A stretch of DNA of 63,287 bases, filler included, from Nemertoderma westbladi (Eukaryota > Animalia > Xenacoelomorpha): NCBI GenBank assembly GCA_032718475.1. It is 3 parts of 3 records of this genome, joined end to end, with 100 filler letters (N's around TTAATTAATTAA, not from the genome) between each part and the next. Parts side by side here need not be neighbours in the genome. Positions count along the whole stretch, not along the records: positions 29,032 to 51,524 come from JAUCBJ010005390.1; 2 more parts are not named here. One strand, given 5' to 3'. The notes below the pieces were generated by a model. That model made no database searches, had not been told where the DNA came from, and saw nothing but the letters and a program-made list of their open reading frames with translations. Of the stretch, positions 12,170 through 61,643 are shown one piece after another. Position 1 is the stretch's first letter, and each line of letters starts with the position of its first letter. The translations under genes were made by a program, and so were the position numbers.

Positions 12170-14290
12170 AAGACATCAAGGGTTACACCTATAACACCAG
12201 TTCTAACAAAAATGGGTACTTACTTTTAGACCTAATGGAAGAATGTGAATTTATACCAACAAACAACACATTCGAAAAGAGTAAGGGGAAGCTATAGACC
12301 TTTCAATACCCTAATGGAACCAAAGCACAACTGGATTACATCCTTATAAACAAAAAGTGAAGAAACAGCATGATCAACTGCGGGGCATACAGCTCGTTCA
12401 ACCTAATTGGTTCGGACCACAGAATTGTGACTGCAGAGATCAGACTCAGTTTGAGAGCCAGCAAACCCAGGACAAGCAAGCAAATCAACTATTTATTTAT
12501 TTATTTTATTTATTTATTTACACGAGGGATCAAGTAGTTAAAAACAGAACATAACACAATACAATACACAATACACGAATAAAACAATCGGTCAAACAAA
12601 CACAACATTACAGTAGTTAAGTAACTCGTACATAAGGTAAACAGCAAAACGAATAAAAATAAAACACGGACATGTAAAAAGTAATGTACTGTAGTTGTCG
12701 GTAGCTAAAACAAGTGGTCGTGGGAGAGAACCACCCAGGCTCAGGGCACTTATGGGTGTGAATAATTGTATACATAGTGATTAATATAAAAAATGGTGAT
12801 GATCGAAAATGAAATGAAAAATAAAAAAAAGTAAAGAAAAAAAAAACTGGAATCAACGAGTGAATTTTGCGTGGGTAAGTAAGTCCGTTTTTAAAAATTG
12901 CACGGAGAAAATATTTATACTTTTGGCATCAACAGCTTGTGCTGGTAATGAGTTCCATACGGGCACAACACGGTGAGAAAATGAATGCTTACAGATTTGA
13001 AGTCTACATTGGGGAACATACAGTTTATGATTATGACCACGTAGACCAGCTCTTGGGGCACTTGTGAACATCTTATTGAAATCTATATCTACTAAACCAT
13101 GCTTTATACGATACAACATTTTGAGGTCGAAAATAATTCTACGCACCTCTAACGGTTGCACAGATAGATACTGTATGCGATTGAGGTAACTGACATACGG
13201 TAGTTTGCAGCGAGCGTACAATCGTCTGGTAAAGTACCGTTGTACTTTCTCAACAAGGTCAATACTTTTTTTTGTGAAAGGGGACCATATGGGTGTGCAA
13301 TATTCCAGCAACGGTCTTACCAGAGTCTTGTATGCTGTTAGCAGGGCTTTAATATTAGCTGTCAGTACACTACGAAATATCCAGTTCAGTATTTTGTACG
13401 CTTTTGCAACTTGTTCCCGACAGTATTTATCAAATTTGAGGTCCGTACACACGATTAAACCTAGATGCTTACAGTATGTATCTGATTTAAGCACTGCACC
13501 ATTTAAATTATAAACAAATTTATTATTATTTCCACCTACGTAAACAACCGAGCATTTGTGCGCCGCTACTGTTAGTTGCCATTTTCTAGTCCAGTCTTCC
13601 AAGTTTTGAAGGGCTGAGGCTAGAGAATCACAATCTTCCTCCGGTGCATAAAGCTTAAGGTCATCAGCAAATAGTTTATTACATACAGGTAACAATGCAT
13701 CAGGTAAATCATTAATAAATAAAAGAAACAATACTGGCCCCAAGACACTGCCTTGAATAGTTCCCGATGTAACTACACAGTAGTCCGATGATTCGGTACC
13801 TACAAGTACATTTTGGGTTCTATTACATAGAAATGCACGTATCCATAGAAACAGAATCGAACTATGACTGGGAGAAACTCAGAACTGACAATGCTGTAAA
13901 TACTTACACAGTACAAGTTCAAAACCGCTTTGAAGCACTTCAGTCAATGGATGAAGACCAATCCACCGATTCAATATACCAGAATATAATAACAGCCCAC
14001 AAGGAATCAGCTAAGAGGCATATCCCCCAGAAACCCAAACGAAAACAATATGTGCCATGGCAAAACTCTGAGGTCACTTATAAGAGAGAAGATCTTAAGA
14101 TAGCCTACAAAGTTAAAACCGAACAACCAACAACCGAAAACATTAACAAGGTGGAGAAGGCTAAGGACGATCTTAAATTGGCCTACAACATCAGCCAGGA
14201 AAAGTACATACAGGATAAAATTGAAGCAATTACAACTGCTCACATACAGCAACAATCAAGACTTACCTGGCAAACTGTAAACCAACAAAC
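12170..14290 (+). pseudogene. RTE-like LINE fragment (endonuclease end and linker), split by a CR1-like insertion
   Basis: QLDYILIN...SDHRIVTA..RLSLRASKPRTSKQI|NYDWEKLR...VQNRFEAL reads continuously once 12493-13865 is removed. Confidence 0.8.
12493..13859 (-). mobile_element. 5'-truncated CR1/L2-group LINE (RT C-terminal half, ORF 12853-13743)
   Basis: QGSVLGPVLFLLFINDL, LFADDLK, LVRPLLEYC.PIWSP and LRGH..KL motifs. (TAAA)n 3' tail. 6-bp TSD AACTAT at 12487-12492 and 13860-13865. Confidence 0.92.
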
Positions 14291-20336: not shown

Positions 20337-23300
20337 TAATACAAACAATCTGGTTTATGTACCCAACGTGTAGTAATACAAACAATCTGGTCTATGTACC
20401 CAACGTGTAAAATACAAACAATCTGGTCTATGTACCCAACGTGTAGTAATACAAACAATCTGCTCTATGTACCCAACGTGTAGTAATACAAACAATCTGG
20501 TCTATGTACCCAACATGTAGTAATACAAACAATCTGGTCTATGTACCCAACGTGTAGTAATACAAACAATCTGGTCTATGTACCCAACGTGTAGTAATAC
20601 AAACAATCTGCTCTATGTACCCAACGTGTAGTAATACAAACAATCTGGTCTATGTACCCAACGTGTAGTAATACAAACAATCTGCTCTATGTACCCAACG
20701 TGTAGTAATACAAACAATCTGGTCTATGTACCCAACGTGTAGTAATACAAACAATCTGGTCTATGTACCCAACGTGTAGTAATACAAACAATCTGGTCTA
20801 TGTACCCAACGTGTAGTAATACAAACAATCTGGTCTATGTACCCAACGTGTAGTAATACAAACAATCTGGTCTATCTACCCAACGTGTAGTAATACAAAC
20901 AATCTGGTCTATATATGTACCCAACGTGTAGTAATACAAACAATCTGGTCTATGTACCCAACGTGTAGTAATACAAACAATCTGGTCTATGTACCCAACG
21001 TGTAGTAATACAAACAATCTGCTCTATGTACCCAACGTGTAGTAATACAAACAATCTGCTCTATGTACCCAACGTGTAGTAATACAAACAATCTGGTCTA
21101 TGTACCCAACGTGTAGTAATACAAACAATCTGGTCTATGTACCCAACGTGTAGTAATACAAACAATCTGCTCTATGTACCCAACGTGTAGTAATACAAAC
21201 AATCTGGTCTATGTACCCAACGTGTAGTAATACAAACAATCTGCTCTATGTACCCAACGTGTAGTAATACAAACAATCTGGTCTATGTACCCAACGTGTA
21301 GTAATACAAACAATCTGGTCTATGTACCCAACGTGTAGTAATACAAACAATCTGGTCTATCTACCCAACGTGTAGTAATACAAACAATCTGGTCTATATA
21401 TGTACCCAACGTGTAGTAATACAAACAATCTGGTCTATGTACCCAACGTGTAGTAATACAAACAATCTGGTCTATGTACCCAACGTGTAGTAATACAAAC
21501 AATCTGCTCTATGTACCCAACGTGTAGTAATACAAACAATCTGCTCTATGTACCCAACGTGTAGTAATACAAACAATCTGGTCTATGTACCCAACGTGTA
21601 GTAATACAAACAATCTGGTCTATGTACCCAACGTGTAGTAATACAAACAATCTGCTCTATGTACCCAACGTGTAGTAATACAAACAATCTGGTCTATGTA
21701 CCCAACGTGTAGTAATACAAACAATCTGCTCTATGTACCCAACGTGTAGTAATACAAACAATCTGCTCTATGTACCCAACGTGTAGTAATACAAACAATC
21801 TGGTCTATGTACCCAACGTGTAGTAATACAAACAATCTGGTCTATGTACCCAACGTGTAGTAATACAAACAATCTGGTCTATGTACCCAACGTGTAGTAA
21901 TACAAACAATCTGGTCTATGTACCCAACGTGTAGTAATACAAACAATCTGGTCTATGTACCCAACGTGTAGTAATACAAACAATCTGGTCTATGTACCCA
22001 ACGTGTAGTAATACAAACAATCTGGTCTATGTACCCAACGTGTAGTAATACAAACAATCTGGTCTATGTACCCAACGTGTAGTAATACAAACAATCTGCT
22101 CTATGTACCCAACGTGTAGTAATACAAACAATCTGGTCTATGTACCCAACGTGTAGTAATACAAACAATCTGGTCTATATATGTACCCAACGTGTAGTAA
22201 TACAAACAATCTGGTCTATGTACCCAACGTGTAGTAATACAAACAATCTGGTCTATGTACCCAACGTGTAGTAATACAAACAATCTGCTCTATGTACCCA
22301 ACGTGTAGTAATACAAACAATCTGCTCTATGTACCCAACGTGTAGTAATACAAACAATCTGGTCTATGTACCCAGCGTGTAGTAATACAAACAATCTGGT
22401 CTATGTACCCAACGTGTAGTAATACAAACAATCTGGTCTATGTACCCAACGTGTAGTAATACAAACAATCTGGTCTATGTACCCAACGTGTAGTAATACA
22501 AACAATCTGGTCTATGTACCCAACGTGTAGTAATACAAACAATCTGGTCTATGTACCCAACGTGTAGTAATACAAACAATCTGGTCTATGTACCCAGCGT
22601 GTAGTAATACAAACAATCTGGTCTATGTACCCAACGTGTAGTAATACAAACAATCTGGTCTATGTACCCAGCGTGTAGTAATACAAACAATCTGGTCTAT
22701 GTACCCAACGTGTAGTAATACAAACAATCTGGTCTATGTACCCAACGTGTAGTAATACAAACAATCTGGTCTATGTACCCAACGTGTAGTAATACAAACA
22801 ATCTGGTCTATGTACCCAACGTGTAGTAATACAAACAATCTGGTCTATGTACCCAGCGTGTAGTAATACAAACAATCTGGTCTATGTACCCAACGTGTAG
22901 TAATACAAACAATCTGGTCTATGTACCCAACGTGTAGTAATACAAACAATCTGGTCTATGTACCCAACGTGTAGTAATACAAACAATCTGGTCTATGTAC
23001 CCAACGTGTAGTAATACAAACAATCTGGTCTATGTACCCAACGTGTAGTAATACAAACAATCTGCTCTATGTACCCAACGTGTAGTAATACAAACAATCT
23101 GGTCTATGTACCCAACGTGTAGTAATACAAACAATCTGGTCTATGTACCCAACGTGTAGTAATACAAACAATCTGGTCTATGTACCCAACGTGTAGTAAT
23201 ACAAACAATCTGGTCTATGTACCCAACGTGTAGTAATACAAACAATCTGGTCTATGTACCCAACGTGTAGTAATACAAACAATCTGGTCTATGTACCCAA

Positions 23301-26300
23301 CGTGTAGTAATACAAACAATCTGCTCTATGTACCCAACGTGTAGTAATACAAACAATCTGGTCTATACAGTATATGTACCCAACGTGTAGTAATGCAAAC
23401 AATCTGGTCTATACAGTATATGTACCCAACGTGTAGTAATACAAACAATCTGGTCTATGTACCCAACGTGTAGTAATACAAACAATCTGGTCTATGTACC
23501 CAACGTGTAGTAATACAAACAATCTGGTCTATGTACCCAACGTGTAGTAATACAAACAATCTGGTCTATGTACCCAACGTGTAGTAATACAAACAATCTG
23601 GTCTATGTACCCAACGTGTAGTAATACAAACAATCTGGTCTATGTACCCAACGTGTAGTAATACAAACAATCTGGTCTATGTACCCAACGTGTAGTAATA
23701 CAAACAATCTGCTCTATGTACCCAACGTGTAGTAATACAAACAATCTGGTCTATACAGTATATGTACCCAACGTGTAGTAATACAAACAATCTGGTCTAT
23801 GTACCCAACGTGTAGTAATACAAACAATCTGGTCTATGTACCCAACGTGTAGTAATACAAACAATCTGGTCTATGTACCCAACGTGTAGTAATACAAACA
23901 ATCTGGTCTATGTACCCAACGTGTAGTAATACAAACAATCTGGTCTATGTACCCAACGTGTAGTAATACAAACAATCTGGTCTATGTACCCAACGTGTAG
24001 TAATACAAACAATCTGGTCTATGTACCCAACGTGTAGTAATACAAACAATCTGGTCTATGTACCCAACGTGTAGTAATACAAACAATCTGGTCTATGTAC
24101 CCAACGTGTAGTAATACAAACAATCTGGTCTATGTACCCAACGTGTAGTAATACAAACAATCTGGTCTATGTACCCAACGTGTAGTAATACAAACAATCT
24201 GGTCTATGTACCCAACGTGTAGTAATACAAACAATCTGGTCTATGTACCCAACGTGTAGTAATACAAACAATCTGGTCTATGTACCCAACGTGTAGTAAT
24301 ACAAACAATCTGGTCTATGTACCCAACGTGTAGTAATACAAACAATCTGGTCTATGTACCCAACGTGTAGTAATACAAACAATCTGGTCTATGTACCCAA
24401 CGTGTAGTAATACAAACAATCTGGTCTATGTACCCAACGTGTAGTAATACAAACAATCTGGTCTATGTACCCAACGTGTAGTAATACAAACAATCTGGTC
24501 TATGTACCCAACGTGTAGTAATACAAACAATCTGGTCTATGTACCCAACGTGTAGTAATACAAACAATCTGGTCTATGTACCCAACGTGTAGTAATACAA
24601 ACAATCTGGTCTATGTACCCAACGTGTAGTAATACAAACAATCTGGTCTATGTACCCAACGTGTAGTAATACAAACAATCTGGTCTATGTACCCAACGTG
24701 TAGTAATACAAACAATCTGGTCTATGTACCCAACGTGTAGTAATACAAACAATCTGGTCTATTGTACCCAACGTGTAGTAATACAAACAATCTGGTCTAT
24801 GTACCCAACGTGTAGTAATACAAACAATCTGGTCTATGTACCCAACGTGTAGTAATACAAACAATCTGGTCTATGTACCCAACGTGTAGTAATACAAACA
24901 ATCTGGTCTATGTACCCAACGTGTAGTAATACAAACAATCTGGTCTATGTACCCAACGTGTAGTAATACAAACAATCTGGTCTATGTACCCAACGTGTAG
25001 TAATACAAACAATCTGGTCTATGTACCCAACGTGTAGTAATACAAACAATCTGGTCTATGTACCCAACGTGTAGTAATACAAACAATCTGGTCTATGTAC
25101 CCAACGTGTAGTAATACAAACAATCTGGTCTATGTACCCAACGTGTAGTAATACAAACAATCTGGTCTATGTACCCAACGTGTAGTAATACAAACAATCT
25201 GGTCTATGTACCCAACGTGTAGTAATACAAACAATCTGGTCTATGTACCCAACGTGTAGTAATACAAACAATCTGGTCTATATAGTATATGTACCCAACG
25301 TGTAGTAATACAAACAATCTGGTCTATGTACCCAACGTGTAGTAATACAAACAATCTGGTCTATGTACCCAACGTGTAGTAATACAAACAATCTGGTCTA
25401 TGTACCCAACGTGTAGTAATACAAACAATCTGGTCTATGTACCCAACGTGTAGTAATACAAACAATCTGGTCTATGTACCCAACGTGTAGTAATACAAAC
25501 AATCTGGTCTATGTACCCAACGTGTAGTAATACAAACAATCTGGTCTATGTACCCAACGTGTAGTAATACAAACAATCTGGTCTATAAGTATATGTACCC
25601 AACGTGTAGTAATACAAACAATCTGGTCTATGTACCCAACGTGTAGTAATACAAACAATCTGGTCTATGTACCCAACGTGTAGTAATACAAACAATCTGG
25701 TCTATGTACCCAACGTGTAGTAATACAAACAATCTGGTCTATGTACCCAACGTGTAGTAATACAAACAATCTGGTCTATGTACCCAACGTGTAGTAATAC
25801 AAACAATCTGGTCTATGTACCCAACGTGTAGTAATACAAACAATCTGGTCTATGTACCCAACGTGTAGTAATACAAACAATCTGGTCTATAGTATGTACC
25901 CAACGTGTAGTAATACAAACAATCTGGTCTATGTACCCAACGTGTAGTAATACAAACAATCTGGTCTATGTACCCAACGTGTAGTAATACAAACAATCTG
26001 GTCTATGTACCCAACGTGTAGTAATACAAACAATCTGGTCTATGTACCCAACGTGTAGTAATACAAACAATCTGGTCTATGTACCCAACGTGTAGTAATA
26101 CAAACAATCTGGTCTATGTACCCAACGTGTAGTAATACAAACAATCTGGTCTATGTACCCAACGTGTAGTAATACAAACAATCTGGTCTATATAGTATAT
26201 GTACCCAACGTGTAGTAATACAAACAATCTGGTCTATGTACCCAACGTGTAGTAATACAAACAATCTGGTCTATGTACCCAACGTGTAGTAATACAAACA

Positions 26301-28931
26301 ATCTGGTCTATGTACCCAACGTGTAGTAATACAAACAATCTGGTCTATGTACCCAACGTGTAGTAATACAAACAATCTGGTCTATGTACCCAACGTGTAG
26401 TAATACAAACAATCTGGTCTATGTACCCAACGTGTAGTAATACAAACAATCTGGTCTATGTACCCAACGTGTAGTAATACAAACAATCTGGTCTATGTAC
26501 CCAACGTGTAGTAATACAAACAATCTGGTCTATGTACCCAACGTGTAGTAATACAAACAATCTGGTCTATGTACCCAACGTGTAGTAATACAAACAATCT
26601 GGTCTATGTACCCAACGTGTAGTAATACAAACAATCTGGTCTATGTACCCAACGTGTAGTAATACAAACAATCTGGTCTATGTACCCAACGTGTAGTAAT
26701 ACAAACAATCTGGTCTATGTACCCAACGTGTAGTAATACAAACAATCTGGTCTATGTACCCAACGTGTAGTAATACAAACAATCTGGTCTATAGTATATG
26801 TACCCAACGTGTAGTAATACAAACAATCTGGTCTATGTACCCAACGTGTAGTAATACAAACAATCTGGTCTATGTACCCAACGTGTAGTAATACAAACAA
26901 TCTGGTCTATGTACCCAACGTGTAGTAATACAAACAATCTGGTCTATGTACCCAACGTGTAGTAATACAAACAATCTGGTCTATGTACCCAACGTGTAGT
27001 AATACAAACAATCTGGTCTATGTACCCAACGTGTAGTAATACAAACAATCTGGTCTTAGTATATGTACCCAACGTGTAGTAATACAAACAATCTGGTCTA
27101 TGTACCCAACGTGTAGTAATACAAACAATCTGGTCTATGTACCCAACGTGTAGTAATACAAACAATCTGGTCTATGTACCCAACGTGTAGTAATACAAAC
27201 AATCTGGTCTATGTACCCAACGTGTAGTAATACAAACAATCTGGTCTATGTACCCAACGTGTAGTAATACAAACAATCTGGTCTATGTACCCAACGTGTA
27301 GTAATACAAACAATCTGGTCTATGTACCCAACGTGTAGTAATACAAACAATCTGGTCTATAGTATATGTACCCAACGTGTAGTAATACAAACAATCTGGT
27401 CTATGTACCCAACGTGTAGTAATACAAACAATCTGGTCTATGTACCCAACGTGTAGTAATACAAACAATCTGGTCTATGTACCCAACGTGTAGTAATACA
27501 AACAATCTGGTCTATGTACCCAACGTGTAGTAATACAAACAATCTGGTCTATGTACCCAACGTGTAGTAATACAAACAATCTGGTCTATGTACCCAACGT
27601 GTAGTAATACAAACAATCTGGTCTATATAGTAATGTACCCAACGTGTAGTAATACAAACAATCTGGTCTATGTACCCAACGTGTAGTAATACAAACAATC
27701 TGGTCTATGTACCCAACGTGTAGTAATACAAACAATCTGGTCTATGTACCCAACGTGTAGTAATACAAACAATCTGGTCTATGTACCCAACGTGTAGTAA
27801 TACAAACAATCTGGTCTATGTACCCAACGTGTAGTAATACAAACAATCTGGTCTATGTACCCAACGTGTAGTAATACAAACAATCTGGTCTATGTACCCA
27901 ACGTGTAGTAATACAAACAATCTGGTCTATATAGTATATGTACCCAACGTGTAGTAATACAAACAATCTGGTCTATGTACCCAACGTGTAGTAATACAAA
28001 CAATCTGGTCTATGTACCCAACGTGTAGTAATACAAACAATCTGGTCTATGTACCCAACGTGTAGTAATACAAACAATCTGGTCTATGTACCCAACGTGT
28101 AGTAATACAAACAATCTGGTCTATGTACCCAACGTGTAGTAATACAAACAATCTGGTCTATGTACCCAACGTGTAGTAATACAAACAATCTGGTCTATGT
28201 ACCCAACGTGTAGTAATACAAACAATCTGGTCTATGTACCCAACGTGTAGTAATACAAACAATCTGGTCTATGTACCCAACGTGTAGTAATACAAACAAT
28301 CTGGTCTATGTACCCAACGTGTAGTAATACAAACAATCTGGTCTATGTACCCAACGTGTAGTAATACAAACAATCTGGTCTATGTACCCAACGTGTAGTA
28401 ATACAAACAATCTGGTCTATGTACCCAACGTGTAGTAATACAAACAATCTGGTCTATGTACCCAACGTGTAGTAATACAAACAATCTGGTCTATGTACCC
28501 AACGTGTAGTAATACAAACAATCTGGTCTATGTACCCAACGTGTAGTAATACAAACAATCTGGTCTATGTACCCAACGTGTAGTAATACAAACAATCTGG
28601 TCTATGTACCCAACGTGTAGTAATACAAACAATCTGGTCTATGTACCCAACGTGTAGTAATACAAACAATCTGGTCTATGTACCCAACGTGTAGTAATAC
28701 AAACAATCTGGTCTATGTACCCAACGTGTAGTAATACAAACAATCTGGTCTATGTACCCAACGTGTAGTAATACAAACAATCTGGTCTATGTACCCAACG
28801 TGTAGTAATACAAACAATCTGGTCTATGTACCCAACGTGTAGTAATACAAACAATCTGGTCTATGTACCCAACGTGTAGTAATACAAACAATCTGGTCTA
28901 TAGTACCCAACGTGTAGTAATACAAACAATC
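20337..28931. repeat. 37-bp satellite array (~230 copies, runs into the gap)
   Basis: Unit TGTAGTAATACAAACAATCTGGTCTATGTACCCAACG, highly homogeneous. Confidence 0.98.
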
Positions 28932-35843: not shown

Positions 35844-38364
35844 TATTAAAATATGTTTTGTACAATTTTGAATATATACAATTTTGTATATTTGTAATCT
35901 GTACATTGAAAAATATACTTCATAGTATAGGGTCAGCGTATTAGTATAAGTAATATAATTTGTCAATTTTTGTTTAATTTGATGTGGAATAAATAATATA
36001 ATAAGAAAATGTTATTACCCTTACGAATCCTTCCGAGGTCGTTAATTGGGCTAATATAAATAAATCAATCTACTGACATGTGTGGGGGTGACACGCCCAC
36101 CTACTTTATAATGCTGAATGGGGCATATGATGTGGAAGGTAATCGCGGGCTCTGTGGCTTCAGGTTACAAGAAATACATTGTGATAGCACTCGGTCCCTG
36201 TTGGGTTGGTACATGTGGGCGCAAGTACACAAGCAAGAGGTTATTAACCTCTTGCATGTCAAATACCTGAAGTAACTCCTAAATAACATTATGAATTGAA
36301 CTATCTTGTAACTGTCAACCATATAGAGGGGGTTGTTACATGGGAAGACCTTGATGGGGCTCGAACCAGTGGCGGTTGTGCAGATGGCCTTCTTTGGAAG
36401 GATATGCTGCTGTGGCATGATGGCCACAGTTCAGGGCTCAGAGATTTTGAGCGAGTTGGCCTCCCAGCAGGAATAGAGATAGTTGTTTAATTTCATTTTG
36501 TTCGTTCGCAACCTGTGTGACAAATCTGGGGAAATGAAATATGAAGTGAAAGTAGCAGAGGCGAAGAATATAATCATTTCTTTGAACCCTCGTTTTAAAA
36601 AATTTGTTACAAGATAGGAGGATCGTATATAATGAGTTCGCGATCTGCTTCATGTTCTCTCATTTCCAGTGGAGCAACAGCCGCAAAGTTCCTCAATTTC
36701 ATTAACATAAACATCTTACCTTGAAATGTTGAAGGGGACTCAACAACTATCTGTACCTAAATAAATACACAGTGGAGCACAATCTATATGATTAAAAAGA
36801 GTCAAGTTTATTTAATGTAACTATTTATTATAAGTGCATTATAGTACAATTTATTAATTTATAATGACGAGATATATAAAAATTATTAATAATACATAAT
36901 AACATACATATAACAATATATAATAATAATACATTAAAATAATTTATCGTTATTAATTTACTTATAACAAATTAAATCGATCTCAATCAATAAATAATAT
37001 TAATTTATTTATGTAATTTATACAGTAATTAATAAATAATTATTAATTACTGTAGATGAAAGAAGAATAGAAGATACCTACAATGTGGGTAATAAAATAA
37101 TACTAATGTGTTATTATAATAGTGAGTAGGTAGTATAGCTGAATAATATTAGAATGCAAATCCCTTCCCACACACAACCGAACTCTTGGCATTTGATTTG
37201 ATTAGAATGAGATACACTGGAGAAGAAAGGTTGAAGTCACCAAAGTGACCACCTACCAATGAAGATGGAAGAATATAATGCAGCTGGGATTGGTTTGTAG
37301 TTTGATTTCCGGCCATTACGTCAGTAAAAACATATGGATCACAGAGTCCACCAATTCGGCTGGCCGGCATTGCCTATAATTACTGAGGATTAAAATTTCC
37401 ACTCGATGTACTTCTTCTATTATTAACACTAAGGATTCATTAACAGTAAAATTGAACAATGACATAATTAAAGTCAATTCACTTCCTGTTTGCTTTCCCT
37501 TTAGGCTTTTGTAGGTTGATTACAATATGTCTCTCTGAAAGGGTAAAGTGTATGTGGTGTTAGTTAACCTGCTATACAGTTAACATCCGAGGATTTGGTC
37601 TCATCTGTAGGCGAGTCTCAAGTGTTTCCCATACAATAAGACTACTGTATCAGGGATCGTACGGTAGTTACTTTTTGCGGTGGCGGGAGCGCTAACGGTA
37701 TGGCTTTGCGGTAGCGGTTTTTATCGCGGTAGTAAAAAATGTAGCAGGTATTATTGAAGTCAGACGCCCACTTTTGGACAACTTTTTTTTAAAGTGTTAT
37801 TGGCGTTTATTTTTGGTAAATTGTTTTCTATTAATATTATTAATTAAAAAATTTTAATTTCTTTTTGTTTTTGATGACAGAAAAATACGATACAAAACGA
37901 ATCAATTTTTCATATGTAATGTGTAACTGCTCTAATGATGGCTGAACGTTTATTTTGCATGTAATTGTAAGAAAATGCAATATGATACGAAAAAAGTTTT
38001 CTAATTTTTTCGTATCATAAAAAAAATTTATATCTTATTATTTCCATAGTTATACAAAGTCAGGATTATTATTTTAGAAAATTATTTGACGAAATTATTT
38101 GATTATTACCATTGCTGCATTGCTGAACAAACCCATTATATTACACCTTTAATTACAGTTGCAACAGCTCATCTCCAATTTATTTAATTAATATCACCTG
38201 GCAGCAATACTCGAGCTGAATATGTATTTATTTGTACTTCCCTCCTGTTTCACTCTAGTATACTTGATGCCGTTAGGTCCGCTGTTAGAGATAGAATATA
38301 TGCAACTTAAGACTGCCCGTTCAATAGAAGTGGATTAGGTGGGACTGTGAGTGTCAGGGGCTAG

Positions 38365-38457
38365 TGGCTGAGCTGGTTAGCGCTACTGATGAGGCCTGGT
38401 AGGCCGAAACGTACGTATAGCGCTGGTTCAACCCCCGGTGACGCGCTCTCATTTTTT
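38365..38457 (+). promoter_or_regulatory. tRNA-type internal Pol III promoter (A box 38365-38376, B box 38425-38435) and T6 terminator (38452-38457); repeated at +341
   Basis: TGGCTGAGCTGG fits TRGCNNARYNGG; GGTTCAACCCC fits GGTTCRANNCC; TTTTTT follows downstream. Confidence 0.75.
38379..38424 (+). ncRNA. Type I hammerhead ribozyme, copy 1 (predicted cleavage after GUA, 38417)
   Basis: Stem I AGCGCTA/TAGCGCT; core CTGATGA; stem II GGCCT-GGT-AGGCC; GAAA; short stem III AC-GTAC-GT; cleavage triplet GTA. Confidence 0.93.
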
Positions 38458-38719
38458 CCACTTCTGAACAAACCCATTATATTACACCTTTAATTACAGT
38501 TGCAACAGCTCATCTCCAATTTATTTAATTAATATCACCTGGCAGCAATACTCGAGCTGAATATGTATTTATTTGTACTTCCCTCCTGTTTCACTCTAGT
38601 ATACTTGAGGCCGTTAGGTCCGCTGTTAGAGATAGAATATTTGCAACTTAAGACTGCCCGTTCAATAGAAGTGGATTAGGTGGGACTGTGAGTGTCAGGC
38701 ACTAGTGGCTGAGCTGGTT

Positions 38720-38765
38720 AGCGCTACTGATGAGGCCTGCTAGGCCGAAACGTAAGTATAGCGCT
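38720..38765 (+). ncRNA. Type I hammerhead ribozyme, copy 2 (predicted cleavage after 38758)
   Basis: Same core and stems; differs from copy 1 only in loops (GCT in loop II, GTAA in loop III). Confidence 0.93.
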
Positions 38766-39824
38766 GGTTCAACCCCCGGTGACGCGCTCTCATTTTTTCC
38801 ACTTTTGAACAAACCCATTATATTACACGTTTCAGCCTATGACATATGATTGATATGAACTTCAACTTAAGAACTTAAGAACTTAGGAACACAGTTTACA
38901 GTAAAAGTTTTCTTTCTTTGGTACTTATTTTTCAATTATCAATTTAACATAAATTCTATGGGCAGGCAGAAGCAGCACCCCAATTGGAAATTTGTTTATT
39001 GTAAATAGTAAAAACGAATTACCAACTACCGCAAATACTGCAGTAGTTAACATTGGTTGGCATACGTTGGCAGTAGCGGTAGAGGTAGCGGTAGTAAAAA
39101 GCGCGGAATTTGCGGTAGCGGTAGCGGGAGTGCCGTACGATCCCTGCCGTATATATCCCTTACAATACGACTACCGTACGGCGTACATAGCCGTTTGGGT
39201 GATATACCGTTTGGTTAATATCCTTATAAAGTGAATGGCGCATACTAAATCACCTTGGTGATATTGCGGAGTTTTTACAGAATTCGCCATTGTTGTAAAT
39301 TGTTTATCTAAATGATGCAATCCCAAAATGGAAAATGGAAATGCTAATTTCAAATATAAATTTGTTCAATTTTTGCGTAGAATAAAATTAACCCAATCAT
39401 TCCACTTAATTTAGTGGATAAAGAAACCATAAAGAAACCAAAAACTCAACATGCCACGACTGCTCGCCTGCGGCTGCAATTTAAGCCCCTCTGCATAAGA
39501 GCAAATTGACCCATGTATCAATAATACTTTTGAAAAAATGTTTTATGTAATATAGCATTGGTGAATTACAAATTAGGTTGTTAGCTGTTGATTTTTATAT
39601 TGATTTGTCAGTTAGTCACAAACCAATGTCTGAATATCAGTAATGACTTAGCGAGCATGATGAACGCATGACATGACAAGTAAGTATATCATATATTTAT
39701 TACATTATAACATGTGGTGTTAAGACATTCAAGAACCATGACTGCCTCGTATTAACTCTCACTACTTAGATAGTGCAAAGCTGGTTAGTACCTGTCCCAA
39801 AGGGGGAAACTGTCGAAGTTAAGG

Positions 39825-39990: not shown

Positions 39991-40919
39991 TAATGGATTT
40001 CTCGTGCCTCTTGGCACGATAAGCTCCTAAAAAGGCTTTGAATATCTAAAAGTTCCAAGGGGTGCTATCTTTTCCCTTATTGTTTTGTTTCCCGGCTTTC
40101 ATTAAATATTTCCCACAAGAACACAGTCCTTCAATGACTAGTTATTTACGGACATCCACAACCCTTCAAAGATAGTGCAAAAAACACAGTGATTTATGTT
40201 CTTCCCAAGATGTATTGTTCCAATCTGGCATATAAAAATAGTGTACTGTAACGCCATAGAAAAACCTCTGGGATGAGGAAAAAGAGAAACCGGATGAAGG
40301 GTGCTTTGGGTCCGGTAGGATCCAAAGTATAGCCTCAAAATAATCAAATATTCCAAAATACAGAAAAATACAGTATTTTTAGTCGTTTCATTATGCTAAA
40401 AATACTCTGAAATACACAATCAAGTTATAGAAAAAGCCACAGGTTATGGAAAACGTCAAAGTTATGGAAAAAAGTCTTAAACGTCATAATAAACTTGGTG
40501 CAGATTCACGCTATTGGAACTTGGTGATAGTGCAGAACACCAGGTTACCGTCTGAGTCCAAACAGGGGTGGGACCGATTGGACGCAAATGGTTAGCTGTT
40601 ACTTTGCCCTCAAAACTATACCATCGATGCTGGCGAGCCTGGGATGAACTGAATAGCCAGTGGACAGAGTGCACAAGCACTACCGTAACTGACAGAGTCA
40701 AAGCCTCTAGGGACACTGCTACTTTGCCCCCAAAACTAAATTGTCGGTCCTGAGACGAACTAAGTAGCCAGTGGACTAGTTAGCCAGAGATCTCAGTCCT
40801 CGGTGGTAACGTCTTACCTTCCCAGCAACCACGAACCCGCTAATGCCAGCCTGGGAAGAAAGAAGTCCAATATCTTGGAGCAGAGCCTAGTTTAGCTGCA
40901 GAGGCGGCCAACTATGAAG

Positions 40920-42010
40920 ATTCTTGATGAAATTATTGCAGCAATCAGTTCAGTATACGATGGTTCGACAACATTTGTGTCTACTGTTGATGGTGACACA
41001 GAACCATTTGAAGTGTTATGGGGCGTCCTCCAGGGAGACACACTTGCACCATTCTTGTTCATAATTGTGGTTGACTATGTTCTACGCATGTCCTTAGATC
41101 ATCATGATGATGATGGGGTGATGATAACTCCACCTACTGGCTCCAGAAGTCGAGGAAATCCTGCCAAGTACCTAACTGATCTAGACTTTGCTGATGACTT
41201 AGGAGTACTCTCAGAATCAATAGAGGGAGCCCAACGGCTCCTCAGCTCATTAGAACATGCTGCTTCTAGTGTTGGTCTTTTTATTAACTCCAGAAAGACC
41301 AAAATTTTGACAGTTAACTTTGAAAGTTCTAAGCAAGTCTCTGATCGGATGAGCATAAGCTCAAAGGATGGTATGCTTGAGCATGTGGACGACTTCTGTT
41401 ACCTGGGATCATGGATCCAGAAGTCAGGTGAGGACCTTCGAATACGTAAGGGAAAGGCATGAGCAGCCTTGAATAGGCTTTCCAGGATTTGGAAGTCACC
41501 GAGAATTAATCAGAAACTTAAGGTCCGATTATTTAGAGCAGCAGTAGTTCCAGTACTCCTCTATGGGAGTCCATGCTGGGCTCTAACTGCTGAGGACACC
41601 AAATCTCTGGATGGCACATTCACAAGAATGCTACGCCGGGTTCATTGTGTCAAGTACAATGCACACATCTCCAACCAGACACTATTTAACATTGGAGGTG
41701 TCTCATTGGTTCCCCCAAGCTTGACACTAGAACAAAATCGCCTCCGCTTTGCAGGACATTGCTTTCGCCGTGTGGACCAGCCAGTACATAATCTTGTACT
41801 TTGGCAGCCTCATTGAGTAAATAAGCATGGTGGACAGCCCATGACTTTCTTGAGACGCATCTTAAAGGACACTGGCCTTGAAGATGCGGATGATCTAGCA
41901 AATGTCATGGGTCAGATGTGGCGGCGCAATTTTGTCGACAAGCCGGCACAGCATTCTTAAAAATGCAGCTGCAATGCAGCATGCCGATACTAGTAGTAGT
42001 AGTAGTAGTA
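40920..42010 (+). mobile_element. 5'-truncated RTE-clade LINE with ~108-bp flanking direct repeats
   Basis: GVLQGDTLAPFLF, LDFADDL, FCYLGS, VLLYG and RLRFAGH motifs; (TAG)n tail; premature stops. Direct repeat 40811-40919 = 42011-42118. Confidence 0.92.
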
Positions 42011-51524: not shown

Positions 51525-51624
51525 NNNNNNNNNNNNNNNNNNNNNNNNNNNNNNNNNNNNNNNNNNNNTTAATTAATTAANNNNNNNNNNNNNNNNNNNN
51601 NNNNNNNNNNNNNNNNNNNNNNNN
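51525..51624. other. Assembly gap with six-frame stop linker
   Basis: N44-TTAATTAATTAA-N44. Confidence 0.97.
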
Positions 51625-53338
51625 TCAGATTCAGACTAATAATTCTACTAAGTACGGTTGCGACAAGTATAAGGTGTGCCTCCCATGTCTGAGAATATAG
51701 CACAACATCATCTAAATACACTAACACAAAGTCAATACCTATCATAGCCAGTTGCATTAAGCGTTGACAAGTAGAGGGACAACCTTGCAAACCGTATGGC
51801 ATTCTAGTAAAGTGATAGTTACCGTTGTGTGTGGTAAACCCCGTCTTAATTTGGTCGTCAGGAGTGAGGCCTACTTGCCAAAACATTGAACGAAAGTCCA
51901 ACGCAGTGAAATACTTTGGTTTGGCTGCGCCTACCTCAGCAACCATTTCATCAATGCGTGGGAGTGGCCAAAACTGTGGAACTGAAACTAAATTTAAAGC
52001 GCGAAAATCTACTGCAAACCGATAATTACCATCCGGCTTTCTAACTAGAATAATGGGGGATGCCCATTCACCAGTACCCGGTCGTATTATGTCATGTTGT
52101 AATAAGTTGTCTAACTGTCGTTGCACTTCTGGTCTTAAACCTATAGGTACTGGGTAAGGTTTGGAACGGACAGCTTTAGCGTCTGGCTTTAAACTAATTG
52201 TATGTTCGAACAAATCAGTCTTACCTATATCAAACTCATGGTATGAAAAAGCGCCAGCGTTGTTACAGGCTAAGTTTAAAATTTCAACTTGCTCATCTTT
52301 GGTAAGGTGACCTAAGGGTAGTTCACGTTCTAAATACGAACGGCGTTCTTCTACAGTAGTGGGACTGGGATGCTTTTTACCAACATTCGTTGATGCTGCC
52401 AGGGCCATACACTTAGCTACACGCTGATTGGCATATATTGTTAAGGGATAATTGTTTGGGTTAAGTATCTGCACTGCTACATTACAACCCCCTGAATGTG
52501 TCAATGCTTGTGGGGTTGAAATGCTACGTGCTGTCAAAAAGTTACTCTTAGATGTTTCCATGGGCTCGACAAATACAGAATCATCGCTATCTGCTAGCCT
52601 GTCTATTTTGCCACGAATTATTGTTTGTGTTCCAGCTGGAATTTTCAGACGTTTCGTAGCTTTAATAAAATAGCAAAAAGGGATTGTAGATTGGCGTTGC
52701 TGGGTAGGGGTTGATTCTGTTCTAGAAAAATATACGTGTTCACCAGACTGCATTATTAGACACCGGTTCCTAAAATCTAATGAAATAACGTTTCTATCCA
52801 AAAAATCGAGGCCTAATATCAATGACGGGCCCCCTTCATCAGACACTGTACTAGCCATATCAACAACCTGAAATTCCTGGGTAATGTTGTAACGGGCTGT
52901 AATCGAAATATCTAGGTAAATCACACCCAATACTTTCACTCGTCCACCAATCCCTCGAATCGAACTCAACTGACTGGGTTCGAATTTGACACCTGAAGGG
53001 ACTTGTCGAGAATCTAATACTGAAAAATCACTACCAGGATCTACAAAACTTTCTACTGGACTACCCTGCAATTTGATTGTGAGATGCATATCAGGCCTAT
53101 CTGTGTTTGGTGCTGAATACATAGGTTGACCTTGTGTGTGTTGTTGTCCATACGAGTTGTTGTTTGTATTAGACGCACGGGGTTGCATACAGTTACGGCT
53201 TAAGTGCCCCACCCGTCCACAATTATAGCAGTCTCGAGTCTCACTCTGATATTGCTGATAAGGTTGTCGGTTGTACGTTTGATTAACTGCATTGCGTGGG
53301 TACCAGTACGATCTGTCGTTGGTTCTAGAATCTGGCAT
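51625..53338 (-). CDS. Gypsy retrotransposon gag C-terminus/pol: zinc knuckle, protease, RT (truncated by the gap)
   Basis: CYNCGRVGHLSRNC, FVDPGS, ILGLDFL, WASPIILVRKPDG.YRFAVDFR.LN, MPYGL and YLDD motifs. Confidence 0.95.
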
Positions 53339-54568
53339 GTCTTGTCTAATGGGTTGGTGTTATTATACCTAGGTTGAGGGTCACTAATTAAACTACGTTT
53401 TGGTGCAGTTTGTAACTCAGTTAACTGTTTCTGTAGTTTAACTAATTCTGCTTCAAGATATGAATTATTATTGTTATTATTATTACTGTACCTGTTGGGG
53501 TAGACTTAATGTCAGATCGTGGGTTAAAAGTCTCCCTGTTATTGCCACGTTGTTGCAAGTCCCTAGTATTCTTATTCGTCCAATAATTATTGCCAACAGG
53601 GATACATGTCTCGGTTTTATTTCCCCACCCAGTAGAACCCAAATTTGATTCTTGGAGAAGATACAGTTCTTCGCGTTTTGCACGTCGAACTGCTTCTTCG
53701 AAACATTTTGGCTCAGTAAGTCTAATATTTCTGGCTAAATCGGGAGATATTCCTCGAAAAAACATCGGTAAAAGTAATTTTTCCCTCTCTTCGATAGCCA
53801 TAGATGGCGAAATGACTGCTGCCCCAACCTATGTAAATCTGTAGCATAATCACCAACACTTTCCCCTACTCTCTGTCTACGATCTAGCAAACAATTATAT
53901 AAAAAGGCCGTGTCTTGTGGGCCAAACTTTGCACGTAATGCGGTACAAATTTCCAAAAAATTTTCCTGGTCATCAGTAGAAAGTTCATCTAATACACGTG
54001 CTGCTGCACCTACAATATAAATTGGGACAATCTTACCAAGCATTTCATTAGTCCACTCACGGAGTTTTGCAATCCTGTTGACCGACTTGATCCATGCATC
54101 AACATCCCCAGTCCCATCAAAAGAATCCGGTTCTTTACGAATTCCATCAGCCATCATTGAGTTTGTCGGTGGGTTCGTTGGCGGGTTCGAAGTCGAGTTC
54201 GTTGGCGGGTTCTTTGGCGGGTTCGAAGTCGAGTTCGTTGGCGGGTTCGTTGGCGGGTTCGAAGTCGAGTTCGTTGGCGGGTTCTTTGGCGGGTTCGAAG
54301 TCGAAACGTTTGTTGGATCCAGCGTTGAATACACGATGGCGTCGAGATTCTCATGGAGAACAGCAGATCGCGAATGTAATTGACTTTCAGTTTGTAGCGA
54401 ATTAGATCGAGCACGTTGAATTCTTCGGGTCCTCGAATCGCCAGGAAGTTTGAGACTTGCCGAATTAGCGCGACTCCGAGTGTTAACGTTAGCTTTCAAA
54501 GATACTTTAGCTTTTGGTATTCGTGTTGAGGTTGACATCCAAGGAACGGTAGCCGTTTGTCGATAAAC
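53339..54568 (-). pseudogene. Gypsy gag (frameshifted) with a 36-bp STSNPP(K/T)NPPTN repeat at 54160-54305
   Basis: PDSFDGTGDVDAW...RRQRVGESVGDYATDL, then a frameshift to FFRGISPDL...PKCFEEAV. Confidence 0.85.
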
Positions 54569-54599
54569 ACCTCCCGGACAAGCCCCCACAAGCCCCCAC
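54569..54599 (-). promoter_or_regulatory. tRNA-Pro primer-binding site, inner copy plus a 9-bp partial duplicate
   Basis: Minus strand TGGGGGCTTGTCCGGGA is complementary to the 3' end of tRNA-Pro (canonical PBS TGGGGGCTCGTCCGGGAT). Confidence 0.85.
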
Positions 54600-54827
54600 T
54601 GAGTGACAGTGCTGCTGTACCTACAGGCTGACAGGTGATCTGTCCTCTGTCCAGGTTTCAGACTGTAGCTGGTGGTGGTACGCTGGTACTTTACTCCCCG
54701 ACCCCACTCCCGTCTGCCATTAGCAATTAGCAGTTGTCTGGTTGTTGCATGGCAATAGGCTTACTCAGGTACTGCACTTACTGACTTAAGATACCATACC
54801 GGGACATTACTGTATTATTACAGTATT

Positions 54828-55253: not shown

Positions 55254-55328
55254 AGTGTTTAATTTAATTACAGAATTATATCACCAAGTTTATTCACAGT
55301 CCGACAGTGAATAATTTTGTAACTGAAG

Positions 55329-56126
55329 ATGTCAGTTTTGATCGAAACCACATTGGGCGACGTAGTGGTAGACCTGTTCATAGAGGAACGACCTCGAGCG
55401 TGTCTCAACTTCCTCAAACTCTGTAAAATCAAGTATTACAATTACTGTTTGTTCCGCTGCGTAGAACGCGGCTTTATAGCACAGACTGGGGATCCGTCTG
55501 GCGATGGGGGACACAGCGTGTTCGCGCAGCTGTACGGCGAACAAGCGAGATACTTCGAAGCAGAGAAGAGTCCACGGTTGAATCATAGAGAGAAAGGAAC
55601 AGTCTCCATGGTGAACAATGGTTCCGATGGCCATGGTTCCCAGTTCTTTATAACTTTGGGCACCGATCTGGATTACCTCGATGGGGTTCACACCGTGTTC
55701 GGGATGGTAGCCGAAGGGGTCGATGTCGTCGATAAACTCAACGAGACCATCGTCAACAAGGACAGCCGCCCTTACATTGACATCAGGGTCTCCCACACCA
55801 TCGTTCTACACGACCCCTTCGACGACCCTAAAGGTCTCGAGATCCCGACAGCCAGTCCCGAGCCGGATCCCGGTATCCTAGACTCAGAGTTTCTGGCTGC
55901 CGGGGAACCCCTCGATGAGTTCGAAGGTCTCGACGAAGAGGCGGTCAGCGAGATCCGTAAGGAGAAGGAGGCAAAGGCTGCGGCTCAGGTTTTGGAGTTA
56001 GTTGGGGACCTCCCGGACAAGCCCCCACATGTGAGAGTTCACCCCAGGTTCCGGGAGTCAGGGTCGATATGGTTTGTCGTAAATATACAATTTCTTAAAG
56101 TTACAGACTTTATTTTCATTTGCTAA
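55329..56126 (+). pseudogene. PPIL4: Intronless truncated PPIL4 (cyclophilin domain, RRM lost) fused to the antisense PBS/LTR
   Basis: MSVLIETTLGDVVVDL..NFLKLCKIKYYNYC..QTGDP..GTVSMVNNG..GSQFFIT..LDYLDGVHTVFG..DPFDDP..VGDLPD. Homology stops at LPD (56018), where PBS sequence takes over. Confidence 0.92.
56011..56027 (-). promoter_or_regulatory. tRNA-Pro primer-binding site, outer copy adjacent to the LTR
   Basis: TGGGGGCTTGTCCGGGA lies 2 nt downstream of the LTR CA end on the minus strand. Confidence 0.88.
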
Positions 56127-56718: not shown

Positions 56719-59266
56719 GGGTAGCCACCTAAAAAAAATTTTGCAAAAAAGTTTTTTTTCTTCATTTTGTGCAGGGGATTTGAATCTGCAATCCGTTTCT
56801 TCGTATCTTTTCCCAAAGTCGAGTTATTGGTGAATAACTGCGAGGAAGTTCGGTAAAAATATTGAAATAACGAAAAATTATTTCCAAATGCTGTATAATG
56901 TATGAAGAATGTCACCATTACGTGCCTTATACTTGCACGTGAACCAAAAACGGAAATCCTAGCAGGGGGGTGGGAGGGAAATTCAAATGCATTTTTTATG
57001 CTATAACAGTGTAATAAGCTAAACCTGTAAACCATTTGAAGTTATACCGGTACCAGAAGTTGTAATGGGGAGAAAGAACAGTCAGAAAGCTGCTGCGCTC
57101 CAACGGTCGTGAGGCAGAGGAGGATTCATTCGATCGATCAGCGAGGAAGAGGAACTGCTAGAAATTCTTACTAGTACAGCGTCGGAGCGGAAAATTTGAG
57201 AAATGGCGGACTACTTGAAGGAGGAATATTCGGAGTTATCCGGGTATCGTATCCAGAGTGCGAGTAACATATCCAAGCTTATTAATTTAGCTTCGGTACA
57301 TGGCAGGCATTGCACGGGATGCCAAAATAACTTTCTTACGCTGGGGATTGATTCCATAATGGAGTTTTCGTGCTCGGATTGTTCCTGGCTGCCTGGACCG
57401 AATGTTTGCAAGCTGCTGAAGCGGGGGACGACTCATCTCAATACGACAGAAATAGAGCGGTTATCCTGAACCAGCGAGCAGTTTATGCTATGAGCGAAAT
57501 CGGATCTGGCCTTGAGGATTTATACGAGAACAGGAAGAGTTTGAGGGGCGATTCTGCGACAGAACCTGTGGCTGACCGGTATCCTACGATGGTACGTGGG
57601 GGACTAGAAGCCACACTGCCAATTTTGGAGTCGGAATATGTATTTCAATGGAGTCCGGATTAGTACTGGACTATGGCGTGTACGGTCTAAATTGTGTAAT
57701 ATCTGTGCTTTTGCACCTTTCCCTAAAAAATCCATAGAATATGCGGAATTTCTTGAGAGACATTCCCCTGATTGCCCGGGGAATTACAGTTCATCGAGAG
57801 GGCAAATGGAAGTGGATATAGCTACAGATATTTTCGGTAGGTCTGCCACTCAACTTTTTTCACCCGACCATGGACTTTTATATTCAGAACTGATATGTGA
57901 TGGTGACAGTGCGGCCTATAATAAATTCGCAAATGTATATGGGGTCTGTGGCGGTTGCGAAAAATATCAGTCCATGTCTAGCAAGGAAAAAATAGAATTC
58001 AATGAGAACAATGTAGAACATTGGGATAAGCATGAACTTGGGGAAGTAGACTGTAAGCGAGTTGTGAAAATGGATTGTGTGAACCACGTAGCAAAGCGAC
58101 TGGGAAAGGGTTTACGTGATCTCAAATCTGGAACTAAGGGTAGATTGTCTGATGGAGGCTTTATAGGAGGGAAAAAACACTGACTGACACAAACGACAAT
58201 AGTGAAGTTGACTGGTTATTATGCGAAGGCAATACTGAGTGCTAAACTGCCCAAACTGAAAGTGAAATAGAATCAGCTGTTCACAAAATGAAGCAAAATA
58301 TTCTTGCTTCATTTGGACACGGGATTATGGGTGGCTCAAATGAAAAGCACCACTTCTATTGTCCAGAGGGTAGTGACAGCTGGTGTCCATACAAAAGAGA
58401 TGGGAAACCGGTGGTAGACAAGGACCACCACCTCGATGCTGTTTTCTTGTCCCTCTTATTACCCTTGTATCGTCGCCTTTCTAGTAATCTACTTCTCCTG
58501 CGCTGCCTACCAGGCTACTCAAAGAACGCGAACGAATCCATAAACTCGTTGATCTGGGCGAAGGGCACCAAAACAAAAGTTCTGGGGTCCTGTGCGATCG
58601 AAGCTAGCTGCAGTGTATGCTATATTGCAGTTCAACAAAGGTGCTTCTTGTCGCTCGGAAATCTTATATTATATATATATATATAGAATTATAATAATGT
58701 ATGTGGAACATTAAAAGAATGAAAATAATATTAAACAGATAAGATTTGGCTATAACAGTTTATTATGTATTTATTCCACACTTCAAAAGAGTCCTATACT
58801 GTTATAATTAATGTTTAACAAATGTTTTTTGAAATTAGCAATATTTTGGTACAAAAAAGGCTATTTTTTCACCAATTTTGGTCCATTTGTGTTAAAATTT
58901 GGAACACATGCCCCTGACACCCCACTCATCCAAAATTGTGGTCAAAATTATTATATTTTATTTATTTATTTATTTATTATTTACTGACCACAATTCCACT
59001 AAAGCAATATCTTTCATACATTTCTACCAAATTCCGACGAAAAATAATGATCTTTGGGGCTGTTTTTACATTTTATCCAGGTTAAGGCGAAATATATATA
59101 ATATATATATATAATAAATAATTTTCATAATTTTTTTTCAAGACGTGTACATATATATCCTTCTGCTTCCTACTCAATTTCAGGAATAATTGATATAGTT
59201 TGCACCATCTAGAGGTCATTTAGTGAATGTGGTATTTTAGGTGGCTACCCCCCCTCCCTCCCTCCC
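56719..59266 (+). mobile_element. Kolobok-like DNA transposon with a frameshifted transposase (57060-58670)
   Basis: ICDGDS, DCVNHVAKRLG, CPEGSDSWC and NANESINSLIW motifs. IR GGGTAGCCACCTAAAA (56719-56734) / TTTTAGGTGGCTACCC (59235-59250). Right end CCC|TTAA. Confidence 0.72.
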
Positions 59267-61569: not shown

Positions 61570-61643
61570 TGGCCAATATGGGGGTCGAACCCATGACATT
61601 CGCGTTATTAGCACGACGCTCTAACCAACTGAGCTAACCGGCC
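61570..61643 (-). tRNA. trnI-AAT: tRNA-Ile(AAT)
   Basis: GGCCGGTTAGCTCAGTTGGTTAGAGCGTCGTGCTAATAACGCGAATGTCATGGGTTCGACCCCCATATTGGCCA folds as a cloverleaf with anticodon AAT. T-run terminator about 5 nt downstream. Confidence 0.93.

Follow-up and report, generated by a model that had tools for sequence, protein, structure and literature searches.

A 341-bp tandem repeat of Nemertoderma westbladi with predicted hammerhead ribozymes between tRNA-type A and B boxes: a candidate non-LTR retrozyme

Metazoan retrozymes without long terminal repeats (non-LTR retrozymes) are tandem arrays of 150–450 bp units with a GC content below 50%, each carrying one canonical type I hammerhead ribozyme; they have no open reading frame (ORF) and no LTR features, are present in high copy and are likely mobilised by Penelope enzymes, all of which is shared by the locus described here (PMC7229834, PMC7761336, bioRxiv 10.64898/2026.07.22.740005). 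Animal retrozymes give rise to some of the most abundant circular RNAs of their hosts; according to a review, they seem to be without promoters of their own (PMC7761336). In canonical metazoan type I ribozymes, helix I has 6 bp, helix II has 4 bp and helix III is short and palindromic (PMC4209133); invertebrate ribozymes, described as efficient at cleaving in monomeric form, typically have a helix III of 2 bp (PMC7229834), and crystal structures reveal a contact between U1.7 and the last A of loop II (PMC11875169). In the schistosome repeat Sm-alpha, cleavage deprives the monomer of a working promoter, hence its published dependence on tandem arrangement (PMC6765202). Here we analysed an array of 341-bp repeats from the xenacoelomorph N. 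westbladi (assembly GCA_032718475.1, record JAUCBJ010005390.1), in which a hammerhead motif is flanked by the A box and the B box of a tRNA-type promoter for RNA polymerase III (Pol III). The array lies in a window of 63,287 nucleotides, the whole stretch of DNA that was analysed, made of parts of three records joined with filler; all coordinates count along this window.

We confirmed that the array is a real feature, observed as previously described, with every named motif found by inspection at its expected position in both copies. Tandem Repeats Finder returned the anticipated period of 341 bp (2.1 copies, 97% matches, 38123–38832), and two tandem units plus a tail of ~25 bp make up the array, which runs on the plus strand from 38123 to 38828–38832. 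The whole insertion is placed at 38123–38828 by repeat finding and by a contig with an empty site, without target-site duplication. The original prediction had given the span 38345–38800, which holds the motifs but not the outer parts of the repeat. Unit 1 (38123–38463, +) consists of an AT-rich body of ~220 bp (37% GC) followed by a GC-rich head (60% GC), and unit 2 (38464–38804, +) is 98.2% identical to it, with six differences (unit 1 positions 38268, 38300, 38359, 38360, 38399 and 38414). That the copies differ in loops alone holds within the ribozyme (38399/38740 and 38414/38755) but not beyond it, as they also carry GG versus CA at 38359–60/38700–01. The GC content of the unit is 0.44, that is, below 50%, and none of the 18 ORFs of at least 120 amino acids in the window overlaps the array.

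Firstly, we searched both strands of the window with a descriptor of the type I hammerhead. As forecast, it found exactly two, with predicted cuts after 38417 and 38758; on 200 simulated 63-kb windows (first-order Markov) it found none. Both carry the core CUGANGA / GAAA / UH with helices I–III in type I order. In copy 1 (38379–38424, +), helix I and the core begin at 38379, CUGAUGA occupies 38386–38392 and GAAA 38406–38409 (GAAAC at 38406), and the cut is predicted at GUA; in copy 2 (38720–38765, +), helix I and the core begin at 38720 and GAAAC at 38747. Helix I comprises 6 bp and, at position 1.7, an A-U pair; helix II comprises 4–5 bp, with A as the last base of its loop; and helix III comprises 2 bp and a tetraloop; the U at position 1.7 and the terminal A of loop II are both present. 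As judged from sequence, this predicted geometry matches the canonical metazoan type I form. Searched against Rfam at its gathering cut-off, the hammerheads went unrecognised: the Hammerhead_1 model, which the original prediction had named for the check, gave no match, and the two copies reached only weak Hammerhead_3 scores (19.4 and 14.8 bits, where the cut-off is 48.5). The helix III region of copy 1 is a perfect 8-nt palindrome with a predicted duplex energy of -9.8 kcal/mol; loop III of copy 2 (GUAA) breaks the family palindrome, and its predicted duplex with copy 1 is weaker (-4.0 kcal/mol). In both copies, folding prediction puts the catalytic fold ~2 kcal/mol higher than the free minimum. 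The circular 341-nt fold retains helices I and II with a stability no better than that of shuffles (z -0.37), and the head fold is likewise no more stable than shuffles (z 0.19). We regard the ribozyme as very probably active; this estimate and those given below for the boxes, Pol III, circles and Penelope are separate judgements.

Secondly, we analysed the boxes around the ribozyme. The A box of copy 1 (38365–38376, +) corresponds to tRNA positions 8–19, and that of copy 2 lies at 38706–38717 (+); the B boxes lie at 38425–38435 and 38766–38776 (+), and runs of six T (T6) at 38452–38457 and 38793–38798 (+), the copy 2 features and both B boxes being placed by motif match. The box consensus patterns used here are consistent with those quoted in PMC10886601. 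The window holds three A-box..B-box pairs, namely both copies and a real tRNA-Ile, against 0.005 per simulated window; with no hammerhead in the 200 simulations, this led us to reject a chance origin of the motifs. As predicted, the boxes are of tRNA type: 38365–38383 is identical to the tRNA-Ile of the window at 15/19 positions and the B-box region at 11/12. What was the end of the D-arm now supplies the 5' strand of helix I, while the ribozyme takes the place of the anticodon and variable arms, in agreement with the layout first proposed. The array thus holds internal A and B boxes that almost certainly derive from a tRNA, to judge by this identity; we rejected a tRNA gene as such, a cloverleaf with anticodon arm and acceptor stem being absent. 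The T6 of copy 1, a predicted Pol III terminator, is the sole run of at least four T in its unit, an absence of further T-runs that is not significant (19% of shuffles likewise). On the strength of these motifs the boxes are likely to be used by Pol III. For copy 1, a short Pol III RNA is predicted at 38346–38457 (+), with a start placed ~19 nt before the A box and ends predicted to pair. T6 lies only 34 nt past the predicted cut, and a cut-to-cut 341-nt monomer (38418–38758, +, from the predicted cut sites), the putative precursor of a circle, would therefore need terminator read-through or another polymerase.

In RNA, the same boxes are predicted to base-pair and so to make up the outer part of helix I. 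A-box positions 38369–38374 would pair with B-box positions 38425–38430, lengthening helix I beyond a 4-nt bulge, with pair probabilities of 0.58–0.77 in copy 1 and 0.75–1.0 in copy 2. An outer pairing of GTGTCA-GGGG with a CCCC-containing stretch had been proposed to extend stem I; copy 2 lacks the GGGG/CCCC pairing, and its outer stem is predicted to form in a different register.

Thirdly, we examined how the head varies. Five sequencing runs of four studies hold parts of the stretch, and 1464 and 752 contigs of two DNA studies (80% likeness) align to the 166 bp at 38335–38500. These numbers (more than 1000 head contigs in one run), together with one empty paralogous site, support the proposal that the array belongs to a high-copy mobile family. 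On the head, summed depth exceeds that on junction contigs by a factor of thousands, a ratio that is not a copy number. Variants were counted only in 38365–38461, the outer ~30 nt at each end of the aligned region being unreliable, as signalled by a majority difference at 38478 that was seen in one comparison and is missing from the variant table. At a threshold of at least 2%, this table has nine rows covering eight positions, plus a 2-nt insertion (TT after 38446). The positions are 38372 (G>A; 26% and 43% in the two DNA studies; gives A-U and keeps the A-box purine), 38399 (A or T in nearly all contigs), 38405 (C>T; 27% and 32%; gives G-U), 38411 (G>A; 0.7% and 2%), 38413 (A>G; 14% and 2%; the commoner loop III variant, with the palindrome kept by wobble), 38444 (C>T; 4% and 7%; gives G-U), 38449 and 38461. 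None of the eight falls in helix I, the T-run, the B box or any of the 12 core bases. The original prediction had staked itself on other copies preserving such elements, and no variant at this threshold occurs in core, B box or T-run. Pairing is maintained at all three variants located in predicted pairs (38372, 38405 and 38444), and diverged copies retain the T-run. At 38700–01 the family carries G, and it shows no common variant at 38414; the changes of copy 2 at these sites are private. Both units share departures from the family majority (38224/38565 and 38259/38600) and therefore fit one common template.

The variant pattern bears on whether the boxes act as a promoter at all. The locus might be an ordinary non-LTR retrozyme transcribed by host read-through, its boxes being kept for mutual pairing or for idle binding of TFIIIC; retrozymes seem promoterless and reliant on read-through (PMC7761336), T6 would stop Pol III from producing the monomer, and the strongly predicted pairing of the boxes explains the tolerated change at 38372 equally well. 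However, box positions outside the A:B helix (T8, G10, G18 and G19 of the A box) also fit the consensus and show no variant at 2% or above, and the T-run stands at a distance like that in tRNA genes and persists in diverged copies, so that we hold transcription by read-through alone to be unlikely.

Fourthly, we determined the site and ends of the insertion. The array lies inside a non-coding, DNA-transposon-like host element resembling a miniature inverted-repeat transposable element (37651–39146, no strand assigned), with 14-bp terminal inverted repeats at 37651–37664 and 39133–39146. This host element is multi-copy: further copies, with different flanks, begin at 37651, and the array is missing from one paralogous copy. 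In one diverged contig, 38090 and 38853 are separated by 53 letters, which makes it a copy lacking ~709 bp; it is one paralogous empty copy, not a proven empty allele. The host element also shows subterminal GCGGTAG repeats and no clean target duplication of its own, and run X5 contains a very short, internally deleted copy of it. No target-site duplication flanks the array, the longest direct repeat across the junctions having 5 bp and lying off the ends; a sequence of 25 bp present three times was rejected as such a duplication, since the empty site has no room for it. A 6-bp inverted repeat spans both junctions (38122–38127/38831–38836) and may be a tiny Penelope-type inversion or chance. 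SnoRNA-like Rfam matches at 38060–38131, far below the cut-off, were taken as chance.

Neither end of the insertion coincides with the cut: relative to the cut phase, the left end lies 47 nt and the right end ~71 nt downstream, and a one-unit insertion would therefore keep the promoter intact. The original prediction had argued that cleavage between the boxes permutes the monomer, which regains a promoter only as a circle or tandem, a logic already published for Sm-alpha (PMC6765202); the position of the predicted cut stands, and with the insertion ends found here it is two ribozymes, not an intact promoter, for which the tandem would be needed. At the right end, the unit's first ~25 nt recur as a third copy (38805–38828, +), an A/C-rich, Penelope-like tail and the likely region of reverse-transcription start. 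Its phase ranks 1/341 in A+C content (0.72 against a mean of 0.47, unit 1 sequence). In the anole, the Penelope enzyme starts reverse transcription (RT) at an internal stem-loop rich in A and C, and the DNA that it cuts is AT-rich (PMC11167929). The tail and the missing target duplication therefore argue for mobilisation by Penelope rather than by a long interspersed nuclear element, and by analogy with such elements we consider Penelope mobilisation likely. The label of an element like a short interspersed nuclear element (SINE) has accordingly been dropped: a classical SINE would start at its tRNA head, finish with poly(A) or a simple repeat as its tail and show a target duplication, while this insertion begins ~240 bp upstream of the first A box, ends in a unit-derived A/C-rich tail and has no such duplication.

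These ends also fit a different origin, in which the unit is the pLTR (pseudo-LTR) of an autonomous Penelope-like element with a captured tRNA and the pair a truncated tandem or local duplication. Xenopus retrozymes are related to Penelope pLTRs (bioRxiv 10.64898/2026.07.22.740005), and both tail and missing target duplication agree with it. Against this, few contigs continue into unlike sequence (a share of 0.01 in runs X1 and X3), no continuation past the tail dominates among the loose ends listed, and metazoan Penelope ribozymes are usually minimal variants, whereas the array ribozyme has the canonical form (PMC4209133); we hold this origin to be very improbable. A second possibility concerns the template. 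Pol III could yield the short hairpin only, with the element spreading through uncut linear read-through RNA and a Penelope enzyme, the ribozyme incidental and no circle formed. The anole Penelope enzyme performs insertion in vitro without any need for ribozyme cleavage, uncut RNA being the main template (PMC11167929), and the insertion ends away from the cut site. But a template of more than 700 nt would need two uncut ribozymes and two passed terminators, the core and helix I are free of common variants, and circles are the main form of the coral, mussel and axolotl retrozymes (PMC7229834), all of which makes a purely linear route quite improbable in our view.

Two intact ribozymes and a start ~240 bp before the first A box imply that the insertion was copied neither from a cut linear monomer nor from a transcript begun at the first of its own promoters. 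Copying of a sealed circle for ~2.07 turns would account for it most simply; an uncut multimer or a local duplication would be possible too. We judge it likely that circles are formed. In run X4, which has another organism label and is only guessed to be RNA, one contig of 371 nt (depth 5.5) returns to its own start (341 + 30), carries the minority loop III allele and has flanks without real cover. It was not used as evidence of a circle, since the same picture would result from a transcript of the tandem or from traces of high-copy tandem DNA.

We therefore favour, with moderate confidence and partly by analogy, a non-LTR retrozyme that has its own tRNA-derived Pol III promoter around the ribozyme and that a Penelope enzyme would have copied from a circle. 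From the motifs, array, abundance, variant pattern, empty site and ends, which were observed directly, we infer the following cycle. TFIIIC would bind the A and B boxes and Pol III would start ~20 nt upstream, the majority of transcripts ending at T6 as a hairpin RNA of ~110 nt. A minority would pass one T6 each, or be supplied by Pol II read-through, and extend as far as the following ribozyme. Once transcribed, the A box would pair with the B box and extend helix I, so that the same bases would serve as promoter in DNA and as scaffold in RNA. Cleavage after 38417 and 38758, as a monomer or as a dimer helped by the palindromic helix III, would free a monomer with its ends held by the A:B-extended helix, and a host RtcB-type ligase may then seal it, reuniting A box and B box. 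The Penelope enzyme would start in the A/C-rich stretch ~70 nt past the cut and copy ~2.07 turns, leaving two units and a tail without target duplication. A stricter and more tentative version, which we think rather unlikely, is a split-promoter retrozyme: with the cut between the boxes and the boxes paired to each other, a working promoter could be copied back into DNA only from resealed RNA. If so, circularisation would be a built-in checkpoint and the element a natural circle factory combining Pol III, ribozyme and tRNA ligase; the abundant ~110-nt RNA might act as a trans partner of the ribozyme, and, given a metagenome repeat end described below (loci L013, L016, L019 and L027), the design may have arisen more than once.

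Several observations weigh against the retrozyme with its own promoter that is copied from a circle. On the ribozyme, only 1/9 predicted Xenopus retrozyme dimers cleaved in vitro (bioRxiv 10.64898/2026.07.22.740005). On the promoter, the canonical acceptor and T stems of a tRNA are not retained, ARAGORN and Rfam find no tRNA at the array and only the tRNA-Ile at 61570–61643 in the window, and T6 right behind the B box would oppose unit-length Pol III transcripts and predicts mostly RNA of ~110 nt. On conservation, two of the eight variants fall in the 59 of 97 positions that are structural or in boxes (P = 0.038), a weak test with position sets chosen after the data were seen: P rises to 0.29 once loop III is included and reaches 0.007 only with a set from which helix II was removed post hoc. 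Among the contig variants at 2% or above there are no two-sided compensatory changes, and one low-agreement subfamily consensus (0.57, 11 contigs) lacks the A-box GG. On mobilisation, the tail has ~25–28 bp at a single locus and is shorter than the 30–40 bp of Penelope elements (bioRxiv 10.1101/2021.04.23.441226); it is predicted to be unstructured, without the stem-loop of the anole element; no Penelope ORF occurs among the 18 window ORFs (5 scanned with Pfam); and the dimer could also come from local duplication. Overall, the original interpretation is partly supported.

Pattern searches elsewhere gave no close relative. Family-specific patterns matched nothing in metagenome contigs or prokaryote genomes, and generic patterns matched 8 + 8 viral and 21 metagenome loci, with none of the 37 holding a type I hammerhead with helix I of at least 5 and helix II of at least 3. 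Nine of the 21 metagenome loci were checked in Rfam, and eight gave sub-threshold Hammerhead_3 matches. L013 (37–112, +), L016, L019 and L027, from one metagenome, have a common repeat end of ~110–125 nt with differing flanks and a type III hammerhead (27.6 bits in Rfam, below the cut-off). Its helix I is a perfect, A-box-like tRNA D-arm with 4/4 D-stem pairs, the cut is predicted just past tRNA position 8 and a B box follows downstream; the selection pattern demanded the B box, not the D-arm. By its sequence this repeat end is an independent hammerhead-tRNA fusion, unrelated to the array. L009 resembles a decayed relative of it. In L011 (575–654, 1195–1249), L018, L015 and L021, type III hammerheads flank a short ORF-like stretch; L011 and L018 each have two, 620 nt apart, with a B-box-like hairpin after the first. 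These four may be LTR-type retrozymes or small replicons of circular coding RNA.

Other features of the window are listed here for completeness. The tRNA-Ile(AAT) gene (61570–61643, -) adjoins a 36/74-bp tandem array (61784–62535). A PPIL4-like cyclophilin ORF (55326–56123, +) has ~235 uninterrupted codons, is 56–66% identical to the homologues listed, mostly from animals, and may be a retrocopy or an intron-poor gene. Two minisatellites have units of 34 bp (111 copies, 4593–8358) and 37 bp (229 copies, 20337–28931). Fragments of two non-LTR-like elements bearing reverse transcriptase, of an LTR-type gag/protease/reverse transcriptase element and of a Mutator-like transposase lie at 12853–13878, 40896–41462, 51569–54760 and 57608–58686. 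The ORFs scanned with Pfam comprise reverse transcriptase fragments, a protease/reverse transcriptase polyprotein, a Mutator-like piece and the cyclophilin.

Compared with known systems, the array shares with Penelope-like elements (anole PAc, PMC11167929; bioRxiv 10.1101/2021.04.23.441226) tandem copies, a terminal tail and an AT-rich target, and the A/C-rich end lies ~85–92 nt past the hammerhead cut in PAc and ~70 nt past it in the array. In contrast to these elements, it has no ORF, a canonical rather than minimal hammerhead, a tail of only ~25 bp and tRNA-type boxes. The TRIMp3 elements Helenus, Ajax and Cassandra are also non-autonomous, with a Pol III promoter derived from a small RNA within the repeated unit, but they are of LTR type, with a primer-binding site, a polypurine tract and target duplications of 4–5 bp, and no ribozyme is described for them in the available text (PMC10886601); core motifs occur in the Helenus supplement (n=5), and the two passages inspected are unlike hammerheads. 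The closest match is to metazoan non-LTR retrozymes: the tandem units fall within 150–450 bp, each with a complete type I hammerhead, and are non-coding with GC below 50%, so that by sequence the array has the characters of this class and lacks those of a classical SINE or a tRNA gene. Unlike the array, with its A box, B box and T6 around the ribozyme, these retrozymes are described as promoterless (PMC7761336), and the 2026 animal-retrozyme preprint mentions neither tRNA nor Pol III nor promoter (bioRxiv 10.64898/2026.07.22.740005). Their circles have been demonstrated, whereas those of the array are predicted. Consensus Pol III boxes flanking the cut make the question of retrozyme transcription testable by single-base mutants, and compensating changes in A and B boxes should restore cleavage but not transcription, separating promoter from ribozyme structure. 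If the proposed cycle is true, ribozyme and promoter would be encoded in the same bases and the element would link SINEs, retrozymes and Penelope elements.

The schistosome repeats Sm-alpha and Sj-alpha already unite a tRNA-derived Pol III promoter and a type I hammerhead in a tandem repeat (PMC6765202, PMC2770079). In Sm-alpha, the promoter stands upstream and the hammerhead follows (PMC6765202), a whole upstream promoter that the array does not have, its hammerhead lying between the boxes; this contrast relies on secondary text. tRNAscan-SE called 2,342 Sm-alpha-like SINE copies tRNA-Gln-TTG genes or pseudogenes (PMC2770079), which implies an intact tRNA head there. In the array, by contrast, the ribozyme replaces the anticodon arm and the predicted cut separates two boxes for which mutual pairing is predicted. 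In the papers searched we found no description of a hammerhead between A and B boxes, although subscription papers, Repbase or supplements may hold one. The combination of hammerhead, Pol III promoter and tandem logic is thus known from Sm-alpha, and the interleaved layout, as read from the sequence, appears to be the new aspect of the N. westbladi array.

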